A DNA stretch of 32,000 nucleotides from the NCBI GenBank assembly GCA_003858585.1, contig RQZE01000007.1, positions 90,001 through 122,000 of the forward strand. The letters run 5' to 3'. A program made the translations under genes and the position numbers. Below, one piece after another: positions 2,648 through 28,999 of the stretch (positions are counted from its first letter, which is position 1; each line of letters starts with the position of its first letter). The notes under the pieces were generated by a model. The model ran no database searches. It saw only the letters and a program-made list of their open reading frames with translations, and had not been told where the DNA came from. Origin of the DNA: Erysipelotrichaceae bacterium OH741_COT-311. GTDB taxonomy: Bacteria; Bacillota_I; Bacilli_A; Erysipelotrichales; Erysipelotrichaceae.

Positions 2648-4102
2648 TTATTGTTTTAAACGTACATCCAATCGATCCAAGATAACATCAATACGGTTTA
2701 TCTGTTCATGTCTTTTTAATTTTTGATTCATTTCATGGATAAAAGTATGGTAATCATAAGTTTCCTCTTTTACAAATAAGATTGCATTCAAGTTTTGATT
2801 TTCAACATAAAACTTAGCACTTGTAATCAAATTACAATGCTGTTTCAGTATCTCTTCTAATTCATCAGGATAAATATTTTCACCTTTATCAGTTAAAAGC
2901 ACCGCTTTCTTTCTTCCCTTAATGTAAAGATGTCCACGTTGATCAATATAGCCTAAATCTCCGGTAAGAAAATAGCCTTCCTCATTAAACGCTTCTTTTG
3001 TAGCATTCAAATTATTCATATAACCCAAAAATACACAATCTCCTTTTACAGCCAATTCTCCTACTCCATCTTTATCCGGTTGAATCACTTTAACATCAAT
3101 ATCTTCAAAGACAACACCTTCACTATTAAAGTTTTCTTGATTAGCATATTCAATGGCAAAGGAAGAAGCCGTTTCCGATAAAGCATAAGCACACAAAAAA
3201 GAAATACCTGCATCTAAATACGCTTGTTTAATTGATGAATCCATGGATGATCCTCCACAAAATAAATACTTAATACAGCCTCCAAACACACTTGGAAGTA
3301 ATGCATTATTTTGGTGAACTGCTTGATACATTTTCTTATAAATAAGTGGAACGGAACAAAATACGGTTGGTTTTACTTCTAACAACTCCTTAGGAATATG
3401 ATCAATATGACTACATAAATAAAGTTGCATACCTGAAATCAAAGAATAATAAAAATTATAGATACCCCCATAAGTATGATGCAACGGTAAAAATAAATAA
3501 CAACGATCTGTCCTATCCATTGGAGCTCGTTTCTTTAAGGAAGGATAACCGGCAAATATATTTTTTTCACTTAACATAACCGCCTTCGGTAAAGAAGAAG
3601 TCCCTGAAGTAAAGACCACTTTAATACAAGCATTTGGATCACGATAATCAAAATCTAAAAATGGTTTTTGTAAAGATTTTCCTAACGCAATAAGCTTTTC
3701 TATTTCATTCATAGATATAAATGTTACATTTGGAAAAGAGGAAGAAACCTCATCCATTATCTTTTGTTTCTCAGATTCATAGATAACCAATGAAACATCT
3801 AAAAAGGAAACAATGTTTTGAATATCTTTAGCGTTACTTTCTTTACTAACACCAATACTTGTACCTACAAAACCAGCTATCGCTACATCAAAAACCATCC
3901 ATGTATAAGAATTAGCACCAAATAACACAATATTTTTATCTTGATACCCTTGATGAAGCAATCCATACGCAACATTATTTACATCTTCTATAAATCTTTT
4001 AAAGGTATAGGGTATATAGACATCTTTTTCTTTTTCATAGATAAAATTGTGATGACTCCATTTTTGATAATCATCCAATAGTATATCTTTAAAGTGATAC
4101 AT
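2648..4102 (-). CDS. AMP-dependent synthetase/ligase (acyl-CoA synthetase-like adenylating enzyme)
   Basis: ANL motifs TSGTSSLPKAV (A3), YALSETAS (A5), LTGDLGY (A7) and KGRKKAVLLTDKGENIYPDELE (A8). AAGGAG RBS; 14-nt overlap with the upstream gene. Confidence 0.85.
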   Translation of the reverse strand: MYHFKDILLDDYQKWSHHNFIYEKEKDVYIPYTFKRFIEDVNNVAYGLLHQGYQDKNIVLFGANSYTWMVFDVAIAGFVGTSIGVSKESNAKDIQNIVSFLDVSLVIYESEKQKIMDEVSSSFPNVTFISMNEIEKLIALGKSLQKPFLDFDYRDPNACIKVVFTSGTSSLPKAVMLSEKNIFAGYPSLKKRAPMDRTDRCYLFLPLHHTYGGIYNFYYSLISGMQLYLCSHIDHIPKELLEVKPTVFCSVPLIYKKMYQAVHQNNALLPSVFGGCIKYLFCGGSSMDSSIKQAYLDAGISFLCAYALSETASSFAIEYANQENFNSEGVVFEDIDVKVIQPDKDGVGELAVKGDCVFLGYMNNLNATKEAFNEEGYFLTGDLGYIDQRGHLYIKGRKKAVLLTDKGENIYPDELEEILKQHCNLITSAKFYVENQNLNAILFVKEETYDYHTFIHEMNQKLKRHEQINRIDVILDRLDVRLKQ

Positions 4103-5165
4103 CTTTTATCTCCTTTTGTAACAATACATATTCATAACGTTCTTCAATCAACTCATCCATATACGTTTGCGTGATTTTACCTTCTTTTTGTAAAGCCCCA
4201 ATACTTGTAACTTGCTTATGCTTTAATGTCTCTACAATACTCTGGACAATAGCCTTCCCTAATCCTTGATGACTTGCATCAACCCCCATATACAACATGA
4301 CATATTCCTTTGGTTTACGTTTTATATTAAAAATACGAATTAAATTTTTAAAATTTAAACGATATACCAAGTTATGATAATTAGGAACACTAATATAAAA
4401 ACCAACTGCTTCGTTTCGATAATACACCATCTTAACCATACTTAAATCAATAATCTTTTTATACAAGGAAAAATATTCTTGAAAATCTTTTGCACTAATT
4501 TCCTTATAAACAGGAAAATCTTTATAGAGATTACGAATTAAATGATATAACTGCAATGTAACTTTATCCCAATCTTCCATTTTTGGACTACAAATTTTAT
4601 AGCCTTCCATTATCTTTTCTTGATAACGATCTACATATTTTTTACTTTGAAACATCTGATTTACACGATAATACTTAGAAGATGTATAACGCTCATAAAC
4701 CTGATAATCATGTTTTAAAAACATTGCATAATAATATTCTTTGTTATAAGGCTCCCCCGTATAAGGAAGCTTATCAAATCGATTCACTTTTAAACGATAG
4801 GTTAACCAAAAAGACGCATCTACCGGTCCAACTATTTTTCGATATCCAAGAAGTTTTGCTTGTAAATCTATTTGTTCAAATAAAAAATCACTCACTTCAT
4901 CATTTTCTATACACTCAAAAAAACCTAAATATAGAATTTCATCTTTAGGATATTTCGTAAAAACAAAACGAGCAACAACTTCTTTATTTTGATAGACTAG
5001 ATATTTCTTTAATTGAAAATACTTACTAAAGGGATGTTGATCAAGCAATAATTGTTTTACTTCCATATCATTTTGCATATTTGTATCTTTGCTATACAAA
5101 CAATTGGCAAATCCGATAAAGTCTTTGATATACTTTTTCTGATGTTGAAATTCTATTAGCTCCAT
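4089..5165 (-). CDS. GNAT-family acyltransferase-like protein (358 aa, extended N-terminal region)
   Basis: C-terminal acyl-CoA-binding motif Q-x-x-G-x-A (HQGLGKAIVQS) preceded by a beta-strand-like YMGVDAS. The RBS is embedded in the end of the upstream gene. Confidence 0.55.
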   Translation of the reverse strand: MELIEFQHQKKYIKDFIGFANCLYSKDTNMQNDMEVKQLLLDQHPFSKYFQLKKYLVYQNKEVVARFVFTKYPKDEILYLGFFECIENDEVSDFLFEQIDLQAKLLGYRKIVGPVDASFWLTYRLKVNRFDKLPYTGEPYNKEYYYAMFLKHDYQVYERYTSSKYYRVNQMFQSKKYVDRYQEKIMEGYKICSPKMEDWDKVTLQLYHLIRNLYKDFPVYKEISAKDFQEYFSLYKKIIDLSMVKMVYYRNEAVGFYISVPNYHNLVYRLNFKNLIRIFNIKRKPKEYVMLYMGVDASHQGLGKAIVQSIVETLKHKQVTSIGALQKEGKITQTYMDELIEERYEYVLLQKEIKDVSL

Positions 5166-25085: not shown

Positions 25086-25169
25086 TTAATCATTAACAAA
25101 GTTTTAAACTTTATTGATTAACAACACTACCGTCTCGACGTGTTAATGATTGTCCAAACTTTTAATCGC

Positions 25170-26207
25170 TTATTGTTCTAATGAGTCAAAAAGCATATTG
25201 GCGACAATATTAAAACCTGCGGCAGATGAAAATTGTGAAAACCTATTACCTTTATACCATTCATCTTGACTAATATTAGTATTTACAATCCAATATTCTA
25301 CTTCTGAAATAAATTGTTCTAAATTATAATTCTTATTTTGTTTTTTCAATTGCAAAATTATATATTTATTTATTGCTGAAACGCCTATTGTTCCCTGAAT
25401 AACTGAATTATTAATGGATTCTTCTTTGAATAAATTAGGCCACTTAAATTTTACTGCATCCCAAATTTTTAAATATATACCCTTTATATCATTAATAATT
25501 TCATTCAACTCTTTATCATTTTTCCAATCAATTCCAATAATATTATACTTGTTCAAATAACTTATTAACATTTGAATACTTTTCACAAAAGAATTAAGAC
25601 TTATTGTTTCATTTGAATTTCTAGTTGGATTGCCTTCCAACAGTATCCTGTTATACCATAATGAATTTCTATCACTATTAAGATTAATTGCTAACTCAAC
25701 TGCTAAAAATTCTTTTTTAGCAATTGTCAAATCACTAGATGAAGTATTATTTCTATTAATTTTATTCTTCAAAACATATGCAAGAGAAGTATCCACTTTT
25801 CTTGATGTTTTATTAATCGTAATAAAAGTATCTACTTCCAATGCCTCACTTGGTTTTTCAAGAATTACAACCGATAATTCACAATCTTTTATATCATTAT
25901 ATTTATCCGGATTATTTTCCTTTAGTTTTTTAAAAGCTTCTACCCTATGTTGACCATCAACAATATTAAGCGTTGTATCATTTGTAACTTCTTCGTCTGT
26001 AGCACATATAATTGAAGTAGGCAAATAAAATGGATTCTCTTTCAAATATTGTACAATATTTGAAACATGATTTTCGTTTACTCGCCTTTGATAACCAGTA
26101 AATTTAATATTATCAAATGTTCTAACCTTAGTATTTCTAACTAACCAATCTACAGTTTTAATATCATTTATGATTTTGCAGCCACATTCTTGTTTTATAG
26201 TTTTCAT
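25170..26207 (-). CDS. DGQHR-domain protein (DndB-like, ParB/sulfiredoxin-fold)
   Basis: 345 aa. FTGYQRRVNENHVSNIVQYL..., then LNIVDGQHRVEAF (literal DGQHR motif), then FITINKTSRKVDTSLAY. This order is typical of the DGQHR/DndB family. Confidence 0.8.
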   Translation of the reverse strand: MKTIKQECGCKIINDIKTVDWLVRNTKVRTFDNIKFTGYQRRVNENHVSNIVQYLKENPFYLPTSIICATDEEVTNDTTLNIVDGQHRVEAFKKLKENNPDKYNDIKDCELSVVILEKPSEALEVDTFITINKTSRKVDTSLAYVLKNKINRNNTSSSDLTIAKKEFLAVELAINLNSDRNSLWYNRILLEGNPTRNSNETISLNSFVKSIQMLISYLNKYNIIGIDWKNDKELNEIINDIKGIYLKIWDAVKFKWPNLFKEESINNSVIQGTIGVSAINKYIILQLKKQNKNYNLEQFISEVEYWIVNTNISQDEWYKGNRFSQFSSAAGFNIVANMLFDSLEQ

Positions 26208-26211
26208 GATT

Positions 26212-26649
26212 CTATTCCTCTTCTTTCGTAATATTATCTTTTCTTAAATAAGATAAAGCTTTGATGGTTGTATTAAAAATGTCCTTTTCTATTTCTTGTT
26301 TTTCTTGGTCTAAAAGATCAAACTCCTCAGGATCATAAGCTTTATCACGCACTTGTTTTATTAAGTATCCTAATAGAATATCTTCATCTTCAAATTCATA
26401 AAGCAGCTTCGCTATCGCACAGAATTTTCGTAACTTAGAACCGTCAATTTCTTTTTTATAACTTTCAATTTCTTTTTTATAACTTTCAATTTCTTTTTTA
26501 TAACTTTCAATTTGTTCATTAGGTTCAATGTTAATTTTTTCTTTTTTATAACTTTCAATTTGTTCATTAGGTTCAATGTTAATTTTTTCTTTTTTATAAC
26601 TTTCAATTTGTTCATTAGGTTCAATGTTAATTCTTCGCCTAAAATTATT
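26212..26649 (-). other. -1-frame open continuation of the RelA/SpoT-like gene (145 codons, no ATG/TTG of its own), ending 4 nt before the DGQHR ATG
   Basis: Minus-strand frame with codon starts congruent to 0 mod 3 is open from just after TGA TGA (26655-26650) to TAG (26214-26212). It reads NNFRRRINIEPNEQIESYKKEK(INIEPNEQIESYKKEK)INIEPNEQIESYKKE(IESYKKE)x2 IDGSKLRKFCAIAKLLYEFEDEDILLGYLIKQVRDKAYDPEEFDLLDQEKQEIEKDIFNTTIKALSYLRKDNITKEEE*. This explains the otherwise ORF-less gap 26208-26411. Confidence 0.6.
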
Positions 26650-27350
26650 TCATCATTTTGTAACTCTGATAATGTATATTTGAAAAATAATTCTTGCTTA
26701 ATTTCTTTCAATTCAACACTAAAAGAATATAGCCTATTTAATTGTGTATCTGCTCCATCCAAAATGTGATAAAGTCCTTCCACCATATCCTTTTTTAGTT
26801 TTGCACGGGAATCATATACTCTACTTTTATAAATTGTACTATGTTCAACTTCACCCCATACATCATTTAATAATGATTTAACTTGAACTTCAAATGAAAA
26901 TTTCTCATCTAGTTCCTTGTATTTACATGCAATCTTATATATTTCATGACCATTTTTTTGTTTGGTATTTGGGAATTCTTCAATTTCTATACAATCCATT
27001 TCTTTCAAATGTTTTATTAGCTCTTCAAATATGTTTTTTTCATCTTCTTTAAAATAGCAATTCAGTCTAAAGCCTATTAAATCAGGTAACTTCTCGCAAA
27101 CTATTCTTTGAATTTCTTTATTATTACTAGTCTTAATTCCCCATTGATTTATATAGTCTTTTCTTTCTAATTTCTCTCTTAAACTCTCCTCACTTTTTAT
27201 TCGTGAATTAACCTCTTTTGATACCTTCTTTCTCGCTAATTTTTTTATATAGTCCTTTAAAATTTTTTCTATATCAATTCGTTTTCTTTGAAGCTCATTT
27301 TGAAACTCTATATCTATAAAAGCATTCATTATTTCATCAACTACAATCAT
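26412..27350 (-). CDS. RelA/SpoT-homologue (RSH) synthetase-like nucleotidyltransferase, small alarmone synthetase/toxSAS-like; 0-frame ORF ending in a repeat-encoded Lys-rich tail (probably frameshifted)
   Basis: All four RSH synthetase blocks occur in order: SRIKSEESLREKLERK (RxKxxxSxxxK), DLIGFRLNCYF (DxxGxR), NGHEIYKIACKY, and FEVQVKSLLNDVWGEVEHSTIYK (ExQxR/K-T/S...W....H...YK). Compare B. subtilis YjbM: GRVKPVASILEKARRK / DIAGLRIMCQF / EIQIRTLAMNFWATIEHSLNYK. AAGGAG RBS 7 nt upstream of the ATG. Confidence 0.8.
   Translation of the reverse strand: MIVVDEIMNAFIDIEFQNELQRKRIDIEKILKDYIKKLARKKVSKEVNSRIKSEESLREKLERKDYINQWGIKTSNNKEIQRIVCEKLPDLIGFRLNCYFKEDEKNIFEELIKHLKEMDCIEIEEFPNTKQKNGHEIYKIACKYKELDEKFSFEVQVKSLLNDVWGEVEHSTIYKSRVYDSRAKLKKDMVEGLYHILDGADTQLNRLYSFSVELKEIKQELFFKYTLSELQNDEIILGEELTLNLMNKLKVIKKKKLTLNLMNKLKVIKKKKLTLNLMNKLKVIKKKLKVIKKKLKVIKKKLTVLSYENSVR
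26445..26632. repeat. Compound perfect tandem repeat: 3 x 21 bp (26445-26507) followed by 2.6 x 48 bp (26508-26632)
   Basis: 21-bp unit CAATTTCTTTTTTATAACTTT. The 48-bp unit is the same unit with a 27-bp insert (CAATTT|GTTCATTAGGTTCAATGTTAATTTTTT|CTTTTTTATAACTTT). Copies are identical by eye, and both unit lengths are multiples of 3. Confidence 0.95.
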
Positions 27351-27383
27351 CGTTATCTCCTTTTAAAATATATAATGTATTAT

Positions 27384-28982
27384 TCATATTAGGAATAGCA
27401 TATTAAAATTTCTCAAAGCATTCAAAATAGCTTCTTCCTTTTCAATTGAACACTGTGGAACTCTCCGGTTATCGTTCTTTGAAATATTATAGTGTTCCCT
27501 AGCTTCTAAACCATGCTTTTTCTTAACTTGTGCAATGTACAGAGTAGATACTTTAAACCCAAACTTTTCCAAAACATAGTTTTGAATTTGTTTATATGTT
27601 ACCTTACTTTCAGCGCTTGTTAAATCCATATCATCCATCGGAAGTTCTACACTAATATATTTCTTAGAATCAAGTTTGGAAAGCAACACAATGGTTTCCA
27701 CATGACTGGTAAATGGAAACATATCTACAGGCTGTACATCTTCTACCTTGTAGTTTAACTCTTCAAAGACTTTACAATCTCTTGCAAGTGTTGAAGGATC
27801 ACAAGAAACATATACCACCTTTTTTGGCTTCATAGCGACAACAGTATCAATCGCCTCTTTCGATAATCCCTTCCGTGGCGGATCAACTACCACAATATCA
27901 ATCTTATCTTTCTTAAGCAACTCTTTACTTACTACTCCGGCATCCCCACATAGAAACTCAATATTCTCAATACCATTCATCTTGGCATTGTACTTTGCAT
28001 CTTTTACCGCATCTTCTACAATTTCAATTCCATACACATACTTTGCCTTCAGTGCCAAAAACATCCCTATCGTACCTGTTCCACAATATAAATCAACACA
28101 TATATCAGCGTCACTAACATTACACTGTTTAATAGCTTGACGATATAATTTAACTGTCTGTATCGGATTAATTTGATAAAAAGATTTGCTTGATATTTTA
28201 AACTTTAAACCATCCAATTCATCAATAATATAATCTTGATTCCATAATAGTTTTTCTTCTTCTCCCATAATAACATTATCTTTACGAGAATTGATATTTA
28301 GTATTACAGATTTAATTTCTTTAAATTTTCTAGTTACATCCTCTACAATTTCTTTTAAATGTATTTCTTCCTTTACAATAAAAACAAGCATAATTTCATT
28401 GGTCGTAAAGCCATGTTTAATCAAGATATGCTTTATTTTTTTGCTTTCTTTACATCCCTTTAATAGCTCTTTTAAATATTGAATAATCGCATTGGATAAA
28501 TCACTTTGTACCATACAGTAATCAAAAGAAACAATGTCATTACTATGATTACGATAAAATCCCATCCTTAATTCATCTTCATACTGTAGTGGAACTTGGA
28601 CCTTATTACGATACTTATATGGCTCTTCCATACCAATAACATCTTTAACCTCAACATCCATTTTCCCAATGGTTCTAAAGCAATCTTGTACTCGTTTTTT
28701 CTTTAAAATCAATTGATATTCATAACGAATATGTCCATATTGACAACCTCCACATTTTCCATTTACACTACACAAAGGCACAATACGATACTCAGAGGCT
28801 TGTTTTAACTCTAGCACTTTACCAAAAGCATGATTCTTTTTTACAGATAGAATTTTTACAAGTGCTACTTCTCCTATTAATAAATCTTTTACATAAACAG
28901 TAAAAGAACCTTCTTTACAAACTCCAAAGGCATCATAGGTAACATCTATACACTCTAATAATAATTCTTCATTCTTTTTCAT
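27384..28982 (-). CDS. 23S rRNA (uracil-C5)-methyltransferase, RumA/RlmD/RlmCD family, with a non-canonical 95-aa C-terminal extension
   Basis: N-terminal TRAM domain. Fe-S cysteines CSVNGKCGGCQ plus a later C. SAM motif DLYCGTGTIG. Catalytic VVDPPRKG and YVSCDPSTLARD. The family normally ends near MFPFTSHVETIVLLSK, but here the frame continues for 95 more residues. Start set at ATG 28982 (MKKNEE...) rather than the TTG at 28997. Confidence 0.9.
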   Translation of the reverse strand: MKKNEELLLECIDVTYDAFGVCKEGSFTVYVKDLLIGEVALVKILSVKKNHAFGKVLELKQASEYRIVPLCSVNGKCGGCQYGHIRYEYQLILKKKRVQDCFRTIGKMDVEVKDVIGMEEPYKYRNKVQVPLQYEDELRMGFYRNHSNDIVSFDYCMVQSDLSNAIIQYLKELLKGCKESKKIKHILIKHGFTTNEIMLVFIVKEEIHLKEIVEDVTRKFKEIKSVILNINSRKDNVIMGEEEKLLWNQDYIIDELDGLKFKISSKSFYQINPIQTVKLYRQAIKQCNVSDADICVDLYCGTGTIGMFLALKAKYVYGIEIVEDAVKDAKYNAKMNGIENIEFLCGDAGVVSKELLKKDKIDIVVVDPPRKGLSKEAIDTVVAMKPKKVVYVSCDPSTLARDCKVFEELNYKVEDVQPVDMFPFTSHVETIVLLSKLDSKKYISVELPMDDMDLTSAESKVTYKQIQNYVLEKFGFKVSTLYIAQVKKKHGLEAREHYNISKNDNRRVPQCSIEKEEAILNALRNFNMLFLI

Positions 28983-28999
28983 ACTTGTATTATACAAAA

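Follow-up and report, generated by a model that had tools for sequence, protein, structure and literature searches.

A second open frame beyond the annotated stop

The window (the whole 32 000-nt stretch of DNA that was analysed) contains a RelA/SpoT-domain gene whose coding sequence appears to carry on, in a second frame, past its annotated stop. The question raised is whether the two frames are joined by programmed -1 frameshifting, toggled by a phase switch, or are the remains of a broken gene. The annotated ORF, EII25_05070 (26412..27350, minus strand), encodes 312 aa and ends at TAG 26414-26412; its product is 100% identical to NCBI RRC92174.1 (Erysipelotrichaceae bacterium OH741_COT-311). 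Codons 1-239 correspond to the ancestral RelA/SpoT-type protein, with the Pfam domain at aa 49-177, and codons 240-312 are an out-of-frame Leu/Lys-rich tail that is read from repeat arrays. On the same strand, the -1 frame (26212..26649) is open for 145 codons (26649..26215) and stops at TAG 26214-26212, 4 nt ahead of the ATG of the next gene at 26207, with GAAGAGGAA inside it. Every sequence feature listed in the first-pass annotation could be reproduced. Its statement that GTG is the sole start codon in the -1 frame also held, although this codon lies 46 codons from the end and not about 40.

As a baseline for the length of the -1 frame, we used the off-frame stop frequency in the 14 long genes of the window: 0.10 stops per codon, with a longest open off-frame run of 71 codons. 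An open run of 145 codons has P ~2e-7, or ~3e-5 when repeated codons are discounted, and is far beyond chance. From 26631 downstream, the -1 frame is the ancestral frame and encodes orthologue residues 276-368 plus duplicated units. The peptide is homologous to the C-terminal domain of intact relatives, and in every one of these the homologue is fused in one frame to a RelA/SpoT domain. The proposal that the -1 frame is the true continuation of the gene is thus borne out.

Orthologues are encoded in one frame

A protein search with the conceptual fused query returned ~40 proteins of 355-395 aa that cover 87-100% of it in one frame. In the orthologue alignment, a segment DYTNFF...YNKEK that is absent from the window is present in all, and each has one copy of INIEPNEQIESYKKE. 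The cluster of near-identical proteins has 26 members; 14 of the 15 members listed have 368 aa, and the remaining one has 380 aa, differing solely by an upstream start. The protein cluster of the rearranged allele, by comparison, has one member. A profile of the C-terminal domain found 82 representatives among 1.84 billion proteins, most of them ~370-400 aa with the domain at ~190-380 in one polypeptide, and the shorter ones mostly fragments. The helical C-terminal domain appears to lack detectable relatives outside the synthetase family. Each of 13 intact loci examined is a single ORF encoding 367-395 aa. The orthologue comparison that the first-pass annotation had suggested as a test of programmed frameshifting therefore went against that idea, with one continuous frame throughout.

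We also searched for further copies of the rearranged allele. No contig was on record for an exact match to the 312-aa product, and the deletion junction and the novel duplication junction each had 0 matches in JGI metagenome contigs, a search run with no positive control with the intact allele. A protein search with the 0-frame tail for other rearranged assemblies scored nothing, the Lys-rich low-complexity words having probably saturated the candidates.

Three lesions relative to an intact allele

An intact 368-codon allele, with single repeat units and 106 extra nt relative to the window, is found on a Logan contig (SRR25035300; L025). Its flanks differ from those of the window at 2 of 731 nt on the left and 3 of 787 nt on the right (99.7% identical on both sides). 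A further locus (L001), with flanks ~98.6-98.9% identical to the window, is also intact at 368 codons and gives the same lesion pattern; Lactococcus pLLNCDO702C is another source of an intact allele. Against L025, three changes mark the window: a deletion of 106 nt, and two additional copies each of a 48-nt and a 21-nt unit.

The deletion junction, GGCGAAGA/ATTAAC, is at 26631..26632 (minus strand). There, GGCGAAGA is joined to ATTAACATTG, with GGCGAAGAATTAACATTGAACC spanning the join, whereas the intact L025-type sequence at this site is GGCGAAGATTATACTAAC... The 106 nt missing from the window begin at the third base of codon D240, extend through codon K275 and encode DYTNFFELIKYIKDSEKCVDRYLGKKLLTETYNKEK. 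Because 106 = 3 x 35 + 1, the deletion is the frame-breaking lesion. It also takes out 36 conserved codons (aa 240-275), which include the invariant F244 and six residues conserved in at least 90% of sequences (Y241, F245, G263, L266, L267 and K273); in an AlphaFold model this segment forms helices 238-250 and 254-266, with pLDDT ~95. The 48-nt unit, which encodes INIEPNEQIESYKKEK in the ancestral frame, forms a tandem array of 3.0 copies at 26490..26632, and the 21-nt unit, which encodes IESYKKE in the same frame, an array of 3.3 copies at 26444..26513; both arrays are on the minus strand and 100% identical between copies, and intact alleles have one copy of each unit.

A 1-nt deletion or homopolymer error had been offered earlier as a competing explanation. 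The frame break is indeed where that explanation put it (GAAGA/ATTAAC, 26636-26626), but the actual lesion is the 106-nt deletion accompanied by tandem duplications that add 96 nt and 42 nt. The sequence 5' of GAAGAATTAAC is unique and not itself a repeat copy, and adjoins DYTNFF... in all relatives. With one A restored, the protein would still be without the 36 conserved residues. Transcriptional slippage usually needs A runs of at least roughly nine; the A runs here are at most A6, interrupted by G, and we rejected this candidate as well.

It is likely, in our judgement, that a recent, strain-specific slippage rearrangement produced this allele and left a pseudogene or a truncated product of an accessory gene. 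The ancestral gene encoded a protein of ~368 aa in which a RelA/SpoT domain resembling small alarmone synthetases precedes a helical C-terminal domain specific to the family. Errors of the slipped-strand or template-switching kind, in AT-rich sequence with many short imperfect direct repeats, would have deleted 106 nt and triplicated the 48-nt and the 21-nt units. Candidate substrates in the intact allele are TATAATAAAGAAAAAATTAAC and TATAAAAAAGAAATTGAC, which are 48 nt apart, and AAATTGA, which is repeated at 21-nt spacing. As a result of the 3n+1 deletion, ribosomes would leave the ancestral frame at codon 240 and terminate at 26412, and the ancestral C-terminal coding sequence would persist untranslated as the long open -1 frame. 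The presumed loss of normal function would include translational coupling to the downstream DGQHR gene.

Two findings are those expected of a disrupted gene: near-identical relatives (L025 and L001) have an intact single-frame allele, and the lesion both shifts the frame and removes conserved residues. The allele is like other products of slipped-strand or template-switch pseudogenisation in that short imperfect direct repeats flank a deletion and perfect duplications within AT-rich DNA, and in that it is private, with intact near-identical relatives. It differs in that three events in ~250 nt are more complex than the typical single slippage. Gene disruption by an indel is in itself ordinary. 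The 312-aa protein keeps the whole catalytic domain, and to call its gene a 'pseudogene', if the word is taken to mean loss of all function, may be too strong.

The slippery heptamers are a repeated Lys-Lys-Glu site

All five of the A_AAA_AAG heptamers reported in the first-pass annotation fit X_XXY_YYZ in the 0 frame (phase 2) and lie ahead of its stop. On the minus strand, they lie at 26589..26595, where the ancestral frame reads AAA AAA G(AA) for Lys-Lys-Glu; at 26541..26547, 26493..26499 and 26472..26478, which are repeat copies of the same Lys-Lys-Glu site; and at 26451..26457, the counterpart of the single site in intact alleles. The five are one Lys-Lys-Glu triplet (AAA AAA GAA) multiplied by the duplications, and are a by-product of the amplified units. 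The homologous AAAAAAG occurs once per intact allele, in phase 0 and outside the slippery phase (L001, L002 and L025), and is absent from distant family members. The heptamers appear in phase only because the 0 frame of the window is displaced by one base.

As a motif, the heptamers are within chance: the window has 34 copies of AAAAAAG against 26 +/- 5 expected. A further in-phase A_AAA_AAG at 26796-26790, in the catalytic half of the gene, is kept in L001 and L025 with no change of frame; such heptamers are background in a Lys-rich gene of 31% GC. No stimulatory structure follows the heptamers: the RNA 3' of them folded no better than shuffled sequences, with minimum free energies of -1.1 kcal/mol (z = +0.26) and -6.2 kcal/mol (z = +1.25). 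On reading the sequence 10-14 nt upstream (AAAUUGAAAGUUAU), there was no Shine-Dalgarno-like element. The tRNA-Lys repertoire influences how shifty AAG is, but there are no tRNA genes in the window.

Weighing the alternatives

In dnaX-type programmed -1 frameshifting, a slip at one of the five heptamers would yield the two-domain protein at full length together with the short product. Few bacterial heptamers are as slippery as A_AAA_AAG (E. coli dnaX), and the locus shares with dnaX this heptamer, its correct phase to the translated frame and an open -1 frame downstream, which a slip at any of the five would enter before the 0-frame stop. However, the two-frame layout is not conserved in any orthologue; intact alleles of 99.7% identity have just one heptamer, which is not in the slippery phase; there is neither a downstream hairpin nor an upstream Shine-Dalgarno-like stimulator; and the conserved heptamer at 26796-26790 leaves the frame of L001 and L025 unchanged. 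The break is explained by the 106-nt deletion, and a trans-frame product (~44 kDa, against ~36 kDa for the short one) would be padded with 13 to ~60 junk residues while still missing the 36 conserved ones. We regard programmed frameshifting as very improbable. Some trans-frame product may be made, since A_AAA_AAG is intrinsically shifty in some bacteria, but it would be surprising if spontaneous slippage at the five heptamers made the lesion leaky. A phase-variable (contingency) switch, in which repeat number toggles the C-terminal domain on and off, had also been suggested, and perfect tandem repeats within the coding region of a probable conflict-system gene would suit it. Nevertheless, the 48- and 21-nt units are multiples of 3, so that a change of copy number cannot restore the frame; the break is an irreversible deletion of unique sequence, with no homopolymer tract at it; and close relatives show no length polymorphism, with 368 aa in all but one of the listed cluster members. 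A switch of this kind is hardly credible here.

It is unusual for three lesions to fall within 250 nt when the allele is otherwise 99.7% identical, and this could reflect a problem of library or assembly instead of biology. The genome would then really be of the L025 type, and the changes would stem from library PCR or from short-read assembly of an AT-rich low-complexity repeat. The OH741 assembly (RQZE00000000) is a draft made from Illumina reads with A5-miseq (PMC6557473). The rearranged allele is known from this one assembly, its one-member protein cluster standing against 26 members for the intact form; its differences from L025 are all clustered within 250 nt; and perfect tandem arrays of 143 and 70 nt are a type of sequence that assemblers handle badly. 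Against this, three novel junctions, GCGAAGAATTAACATT, AAAAAAGAAAAAATTAAC and AAAAAAGAAATTGAAAG, are absent from the intact allele, so mis-joined error-free reads cannot yield them. Assemblers usually collapse and seldom expand tandem repeats, and copy number, the most error-prone part, leaves the frame unaffected, the break being at the deletion junction. An artefact is accordingly unlikely. The 312-aa product could also be a neo-functional enzyme, an active and deregulated synthetase under selection: its catalytic domain and invariant residues are untouched, and N-terminal fragments are kept in other lineages too (to aa 242 in L006-L008 and to ~aa 221 in L011). Yet there is no sign of selection: what is left of the C-terminal coding sequence is identical to that of L025, so that too little time has passed since the event for selection to be judged. 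The recurrent independent disruptions in the family, some inside the catalytic domain (in the S. mitis SK569 synthetase gene, a 1-nt and a 23-nt deletion), look like decay and not innovation. We consider a new function improbable.

With disruption by slippage as the preferred reading, the main value of the locus is a caution. A frameshift in a Lys-rich, AT-rich gene automatically yields in-phase A_AAA_AAG from AAA AAA GAA, and an open alternative frame with slippery heptamers is therefore no evidence of recoding unless the layout is common to orthologues. The annotation of EII25_05070 should mark the gene as disrupted, because the ancestral product is 368 aa.

Enzyme class

The protein matches RelA_SpoT (PF04607) at aa 49-177 with 53.8 bits against a gathering cut-off of 27. 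Foldseek matched its N-terminal ~210 residues to RelP and RelQ (E 4e-8 to 1e-6), the best match being 6fgj (E 4e-8, TM 0.68 normalised to target), and sequence searches found 3l9d and 6fgk (E ~1e-6). D90, E154 and Q156 do not vary among 51 sequences; from general knowledge of RelSeq and RelQ, we take these to have catalytic roles. RelQ and RelP (SAS1/SAS2) are thus the best matches in both fold and sequence, with the D (DLIGFR) and E/Q (FEVQVKS) motifs invariant in the family. The family differs from them in that identity is only 16-22%, in an added ~185-aa helical C-terminal domain, in a His (NGHEIYK) for the Tyr of the GYRSYH segment, and in the constant pairing of its gene with a DGQHR gene. 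In the alignment, the G-loop is unlike that of (p)ppGpp synthetases, and any assignment of acceptor specificity is putative.

The analogy with CapRel drawn in the first-pass annotation did not hold up. CapRel (the tRNA pyrophosphokinase of 7ztb, a fused toxSAS-antitoxin) is, as a single polypeptide, similar in length, with an RSH domain and then a C-terminal domain, and likewise occurs in mobile or defence-type DNA. Its fold match, however, is weak (E 5.6e-4, TM 0.28, rmsd 16 Å), against 3e-4 for FaRel2 and 4e-8 for RelP, and the catalytic part had no sequence matches to CapRel or FaRel; it is much nearer to RelP and RelQ. A CapRel-type C-terminal pseudo-zinc-finger antitoxin/sensor domain was also rejected: searched by profile and by model, the C-terminal domain had a best PDB sequence match at E 0.5, a best Foldseek match at E 1.9 and no Pfam match, and resembles no solved structure. 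Moreover, natural alleles truncated at the C-terminus occur in several lineages, which would be unexpected if this were an autoinhibitory antitoxin domain.

The DGQHR partner

The downstream gene (25170..26207, minus strand) is intact and encodes a 345-aa DGQHR/DndB-like (ParB-fold) protein. It is a conserved partner, normally coupled to the upstream gene through the 4-nt stop/start spacer. The protein scores 101.2 bits against the TIGR03187 DGQHR domain model (cut-off 58.85), and the motif is readable at IVDGQHRVEAF. As well as passing TIGR03187, it matches Pfam DndB and PADLOC DpdB, but its scores do not come near the equivalog cut-offs set for DndB-type and DpdB proteins; in addition, an RSH enzyme is the partner here, and the neighbourhood contains no dnd or dpd genes.

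Together with its DGQHR neighbour, the synthetase gene makes up a mobile cassette of two genes that is conserved. A literature search for RSH enzymes paired with DGQHR/DndB proteins found nothing relevant, and such an absence is no proof of novelty. Tentatively, the cassette may be an undescribed two-gene conflict module of a synthetase-like enzyme and a DGQHR/ParB-fold protein, with repeated inactivation of the synthetase reflecting its cost or toxicity; we put this forward as a possibility that is less likely than not. It may merit testing as a candidate phage-defence or toxin-type module, for which the catalogued natural knock-out alleles would be useful controls. The synthetase gene has been independently inactivated in the window, in S. 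mitis SK569 and in L006-L008, L009 and L011. On the conflict-module reading, the cassette would move between Firmicutes of the mouth and gut, Campylobacter and the dairy plasmids of lactococci.

The -1 frame encodes the C-terminal domain of the synthetase

The 0-frame synthetase ORF (27350..26412, minus strand; 312 aa) ends at a TAG at 26414-26412. Its product matches NCBI RRC92174.1 (EII25_05070) with 100% identity; that record comes from Erysipelotrichaceae bacterium OH741_COT-311, a canine oral isolate whose genome was sequenced by Illumina and assembled with A5-miseq (PMC6557473). Residues 49-177 of the product match Pfam RelA_SpoT (53.8 bits; gathering score 27). The overlapping -1 frame has 145 open codons (26649..26215, minus strand) and ends at a TAG at 26214-26212, which 4 nt separate from the ATG (26207) of the downstream DGQHR/DndB-like gene. 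In 14 long genes of the window, off-frame stops occur at 0.10 per codon and the longest open off-frame run is 71 codons; a run of 145 codons is thus far beyond chance (P ~2e-7).

We joined the two frames conceptually and used the fusion as the query in a protein search. This returned 118 proteins, ~40 of which (355-395 aa) span 87-100% of the fused query as one polypeptide. In the alignment, the -1 peptide (IDGSKLRKFCAIAKLLYEFEDEDILLGYLIKQVRDKAYDPEEF...) corresponds to the C-terminal part that is conserved across the synthetase family, which bears out the suggestion in the first-pass annotation that this frame is the real continuation of the gene. A profile of the C-terminal domain (~185 residues) picked out 82 proteins among 1.84 billion cluster representatives. 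The majority are ~370-400 aa long with the domain at approximately residues 190-380, so fusion in one frame is the rule; the shorter matches are mostly fragments.

A deletion and two tandem duplications disrupt the gene

Intact alleles from close relatives are found on an ENA metagenome contig (L001), with flanks ~98.6-98.9% identical to the window, and a Logan contig (L025; SRR25035300), with 2 mismatches in 731 nt of the left flank and 3 in 787 nt of the right. In both, the synthetase gene is intact (368 codons) and the DGQHR gene comes next. Compared with these alleles, the window has lost 106 nt, from the third base of the D240 codon through the K275 codon, leaving the junction of GGCGAAGA with ATTAAC between 26632 and 26631 (minus strand). 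As 106 = 3x35+1, the downstream frame is displaced and could be restored by a -1 shift. The window also has two additional copies of a 48-nt unit and two of a 21-nt unit, which Tandem Repeats Finder reports as perfect arrays of 3.0 copies (26490-26632, minus strand) and 3.3 copies (26444-26513, minus strand), respectively. Both unit lengths are multiples of three, so these duplications are frame-neutral. At the protein level, INIEPNEQIESYKKE(K) and IESYKKE are each present three times compared to once in the orthologues, and a 36-residue segment found in every aligned orthologue (DYTNFFELIKYIKDSEKCVDRYLGKKLLTETYNKEK in the closest ones) is missing. Of the 26 proteins in the near-identical cluster, 15 are listed: 14 of these have 368 aa, and the other reaches 380 aa by way of an upstream start. 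The arrays are therefore private to OH741_COT-311 rather than a population-level variable-number repeat.

The frame break had been placed correctly, at what is now seen to be the deletion breakpoint. What had been read there as a first repeat junction, one nt shorter than later copies, is this breakpoint itself: the sequence upstream is unique rather than a repeat copy, and in all relatives it is directly followed by DYTNFF. The missing segment includes Y241, F244 (invariant), F245, G263, L266, L267 and K273, all conserved in a 51-sequence family alignment, and comprises two helices (238-250 and 254-266; block pLDDT 94-97) in an AlphaFold model of an intact orthologue (mean pLDDT 86.9). Because this conserved helical segment is gone, frame repair, whether by an added base or by ribosomal slippage, would not rebuild the normal protein, and the proposal of a one-nucleotide error is not supported.

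Alternative explanations

The five AAAAAAG heptamers that had suggested recoding are real and sit at the coordinates first given for them; relative to the 0 frame, all five have the X_XXY_YYZ phase. However, the motif is not unusual in the window (34 copies versus 26 +/- 5 expected). Intact alleles have it once, as the codons AAA AAA GAA (Lys-Lys-Glu of ESYKKE) in phase 0, the non-slippery phase. There are five copies here because this single site sits inside both amplified units, and they appear in phase only because translation in the window runs one base out of the ancestral frame. In more distant orthologues the heptamer is not conserved, the corresponding residues being YKRE, YKNK, YKER or YEEV. 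We found no stimulatory structure 3' of the heptamers (MFE -1.1 and -6.2 kcal/mol; z = +0.26 and +1.25 versus shuffles) and no Shine-Dalgarno-like element upstream. With single-frame orthologues and 36 residues missing as well, programmed frameshifting is very improbable. Phase variation, the other switching model that had been raised, is scarcely credible given repeat units that are multiples of three and a deletion that is irreversible. A sixth in-phase A_AAA_AAG (26796-26790, minus strand), at the K-K-D codons of AKLKKDM in the conserved half of the gene, is kept in both intact alleles with no frame change, and serves as a natural negative control for the heptamer argument.

The rearranged allele is seen in one draft assembly only, as an assembly or library artefact would be, but its three junction sequences are absent from the intact allele and could not arise by mis-joining correct reads; we consider an artefact unlikely. 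That the truncated enzyme has gained a new function is quite improbable, there being no evidence in its favour. Most probably, the locus is an ordinary accessory gene recently disrupted by indels.

Origin and consequences of the lesions

In the intact allele, there is a 48-nt distance between the imperfect repeats TATAATAAAGAAAAAATTAAC and TATAAAAAAGAAATTGAC, and a 21-nt distance between copies of AAATTGA. Slipped-strand mispairing may have acted on these sequences; where amplified 48-nt units meet (…TATAAAAAAGAAAAAATTAAC…), the sequence combines parts of TATAATAAAGAAAAAATTAAC and TATAAAAAAGAAATTGAC, as predicted by slippage or unequal exchange. Microhomology is minimal at the deletion, where GAAGA now abuts ATTAAC. 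The three changes fall within ~250 nt, the rest of the allele is 99.7% identical, and the stranded C-terminal coding sequence has zero differences from L025; the events, or one complex event, are therefore recent. The expected product would retain the catalytic domain within its 312 aa, end in 73 junk residues and lack the C-terminal domain. Translation in the 0 frame would stop 204 nt short of the DGQHR start, in contrast to the conserved 4-nt TAGAATCATG spacing, which probably weakens translational coupling.

Other lineages have also suffered independent damage to the synthetase gene. In Streptococcus mitis SK569 (L022 2900-4000), an A run has lost 1 nt and a further 23 nt are missing inside the catalytic domain. 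The DGQHR gene is lost in an S. mitis MAG (breakpoint at ~aa 221) and in L006-L008 (breakpoint at aa 242), whilst in L009 synthetase aa 1-217 are fused in frame to DGQHR aa ~77-345. Natural C-terminally truncated copies in several lineages disfavour a simple autoinhibitory-antitoxin model.

Relationship to known synthetases

The best Foldseek match of the N-terminal ~210 residues is RelP (6fgj; E 4e-8, TM 0.68 normalised to target), followed by RelQ, 2be3 and 3l9d, and the same region matches housekeeping small alarmone synthetases by sequence at E ~1e-6. FaRel2, a toxSAS (3e-4), and CapRel (7ztb; 5.6e-4, rmsd 16 A) match much more weakly. The C-terminal domain has no match in Pfam, among PDB sequences (best E 0.5) or among PDB folds (best E 1.9), so the earlier CapRel analogy is unsupported as a statement of membership. 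The 51-sequence alignment shows no variation in the D (DLIGFR) and E/Q (FEVQVKS) motifs. At residues 128-140 (26931-26969, minus strand), NGHEIYK aligns with the GYRSYH stretch of small alarmone synthetases, with His for Tyr and Lys for His, which hints that the acceptor substrate may be other than GDP/GTP.

A conserved two-gene cassette

What remains of potential interest is only the conserved synthetase-DGQHR cassette (25170-27350, minus strand; also L001, L002-L005, L010, L012-L023, L025 and L026). The two genes adjoin in every intact locus examined with downstream sequence available. A synthetase of ~370 aa and a DGQHR/DndB-like protein of 345 aa, with a 4-nt stop/start spacer, recur in distant taxa: Streptococcus, Christensenellales, Campylobacter, Acutalibacteraceae, Dorea and Lachnospiraceae, and Bacillus salitolerans. 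A 368-aa synthetase of the near-identical cluster, examined at the protein level, is annotated from a Mogibacterium sp. (WP_455052579.1). The pair is also carried by the Lactococcus dairy plasmid pLLNCDO702C, where an abortive-infection gene, an IS6 transposase and two cytosine (C5-)methyltransferase genes are found nearby. The pair is not a named system in PADLOC v2, nor did we find a description in the literature searched.

In the window, the cassette extends over ~25140-27700, its left end falling inside a ~90-aa C-terminal extension of an rlmD/RumA-like methyltransferase ORF (28997..27384, minus strand; 537 aa versus 449 aa in Streptococcus locus L002). These final ~90 residues (VLLSKLDSKKYISVELPMDD...NFNMLFLI; 27384-27700, minus strand) have homologues elsewhere: in L006, a free-standing 99-aa ORF located upstream of the cassette, and in L002, degraded sequence. 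The left end thus seems to fall within, or be joined to, the 3' end of rlmD, which may be a hot spot for integration. In L005, a Streptococcus-type contig, rlmD is replaced by a large serine recombinase (3060-4814; Resolvase, Recombinase and Zn_ribbon_recom domains) directly upstream of the cassette, suggesting that this same site received an integrative element.
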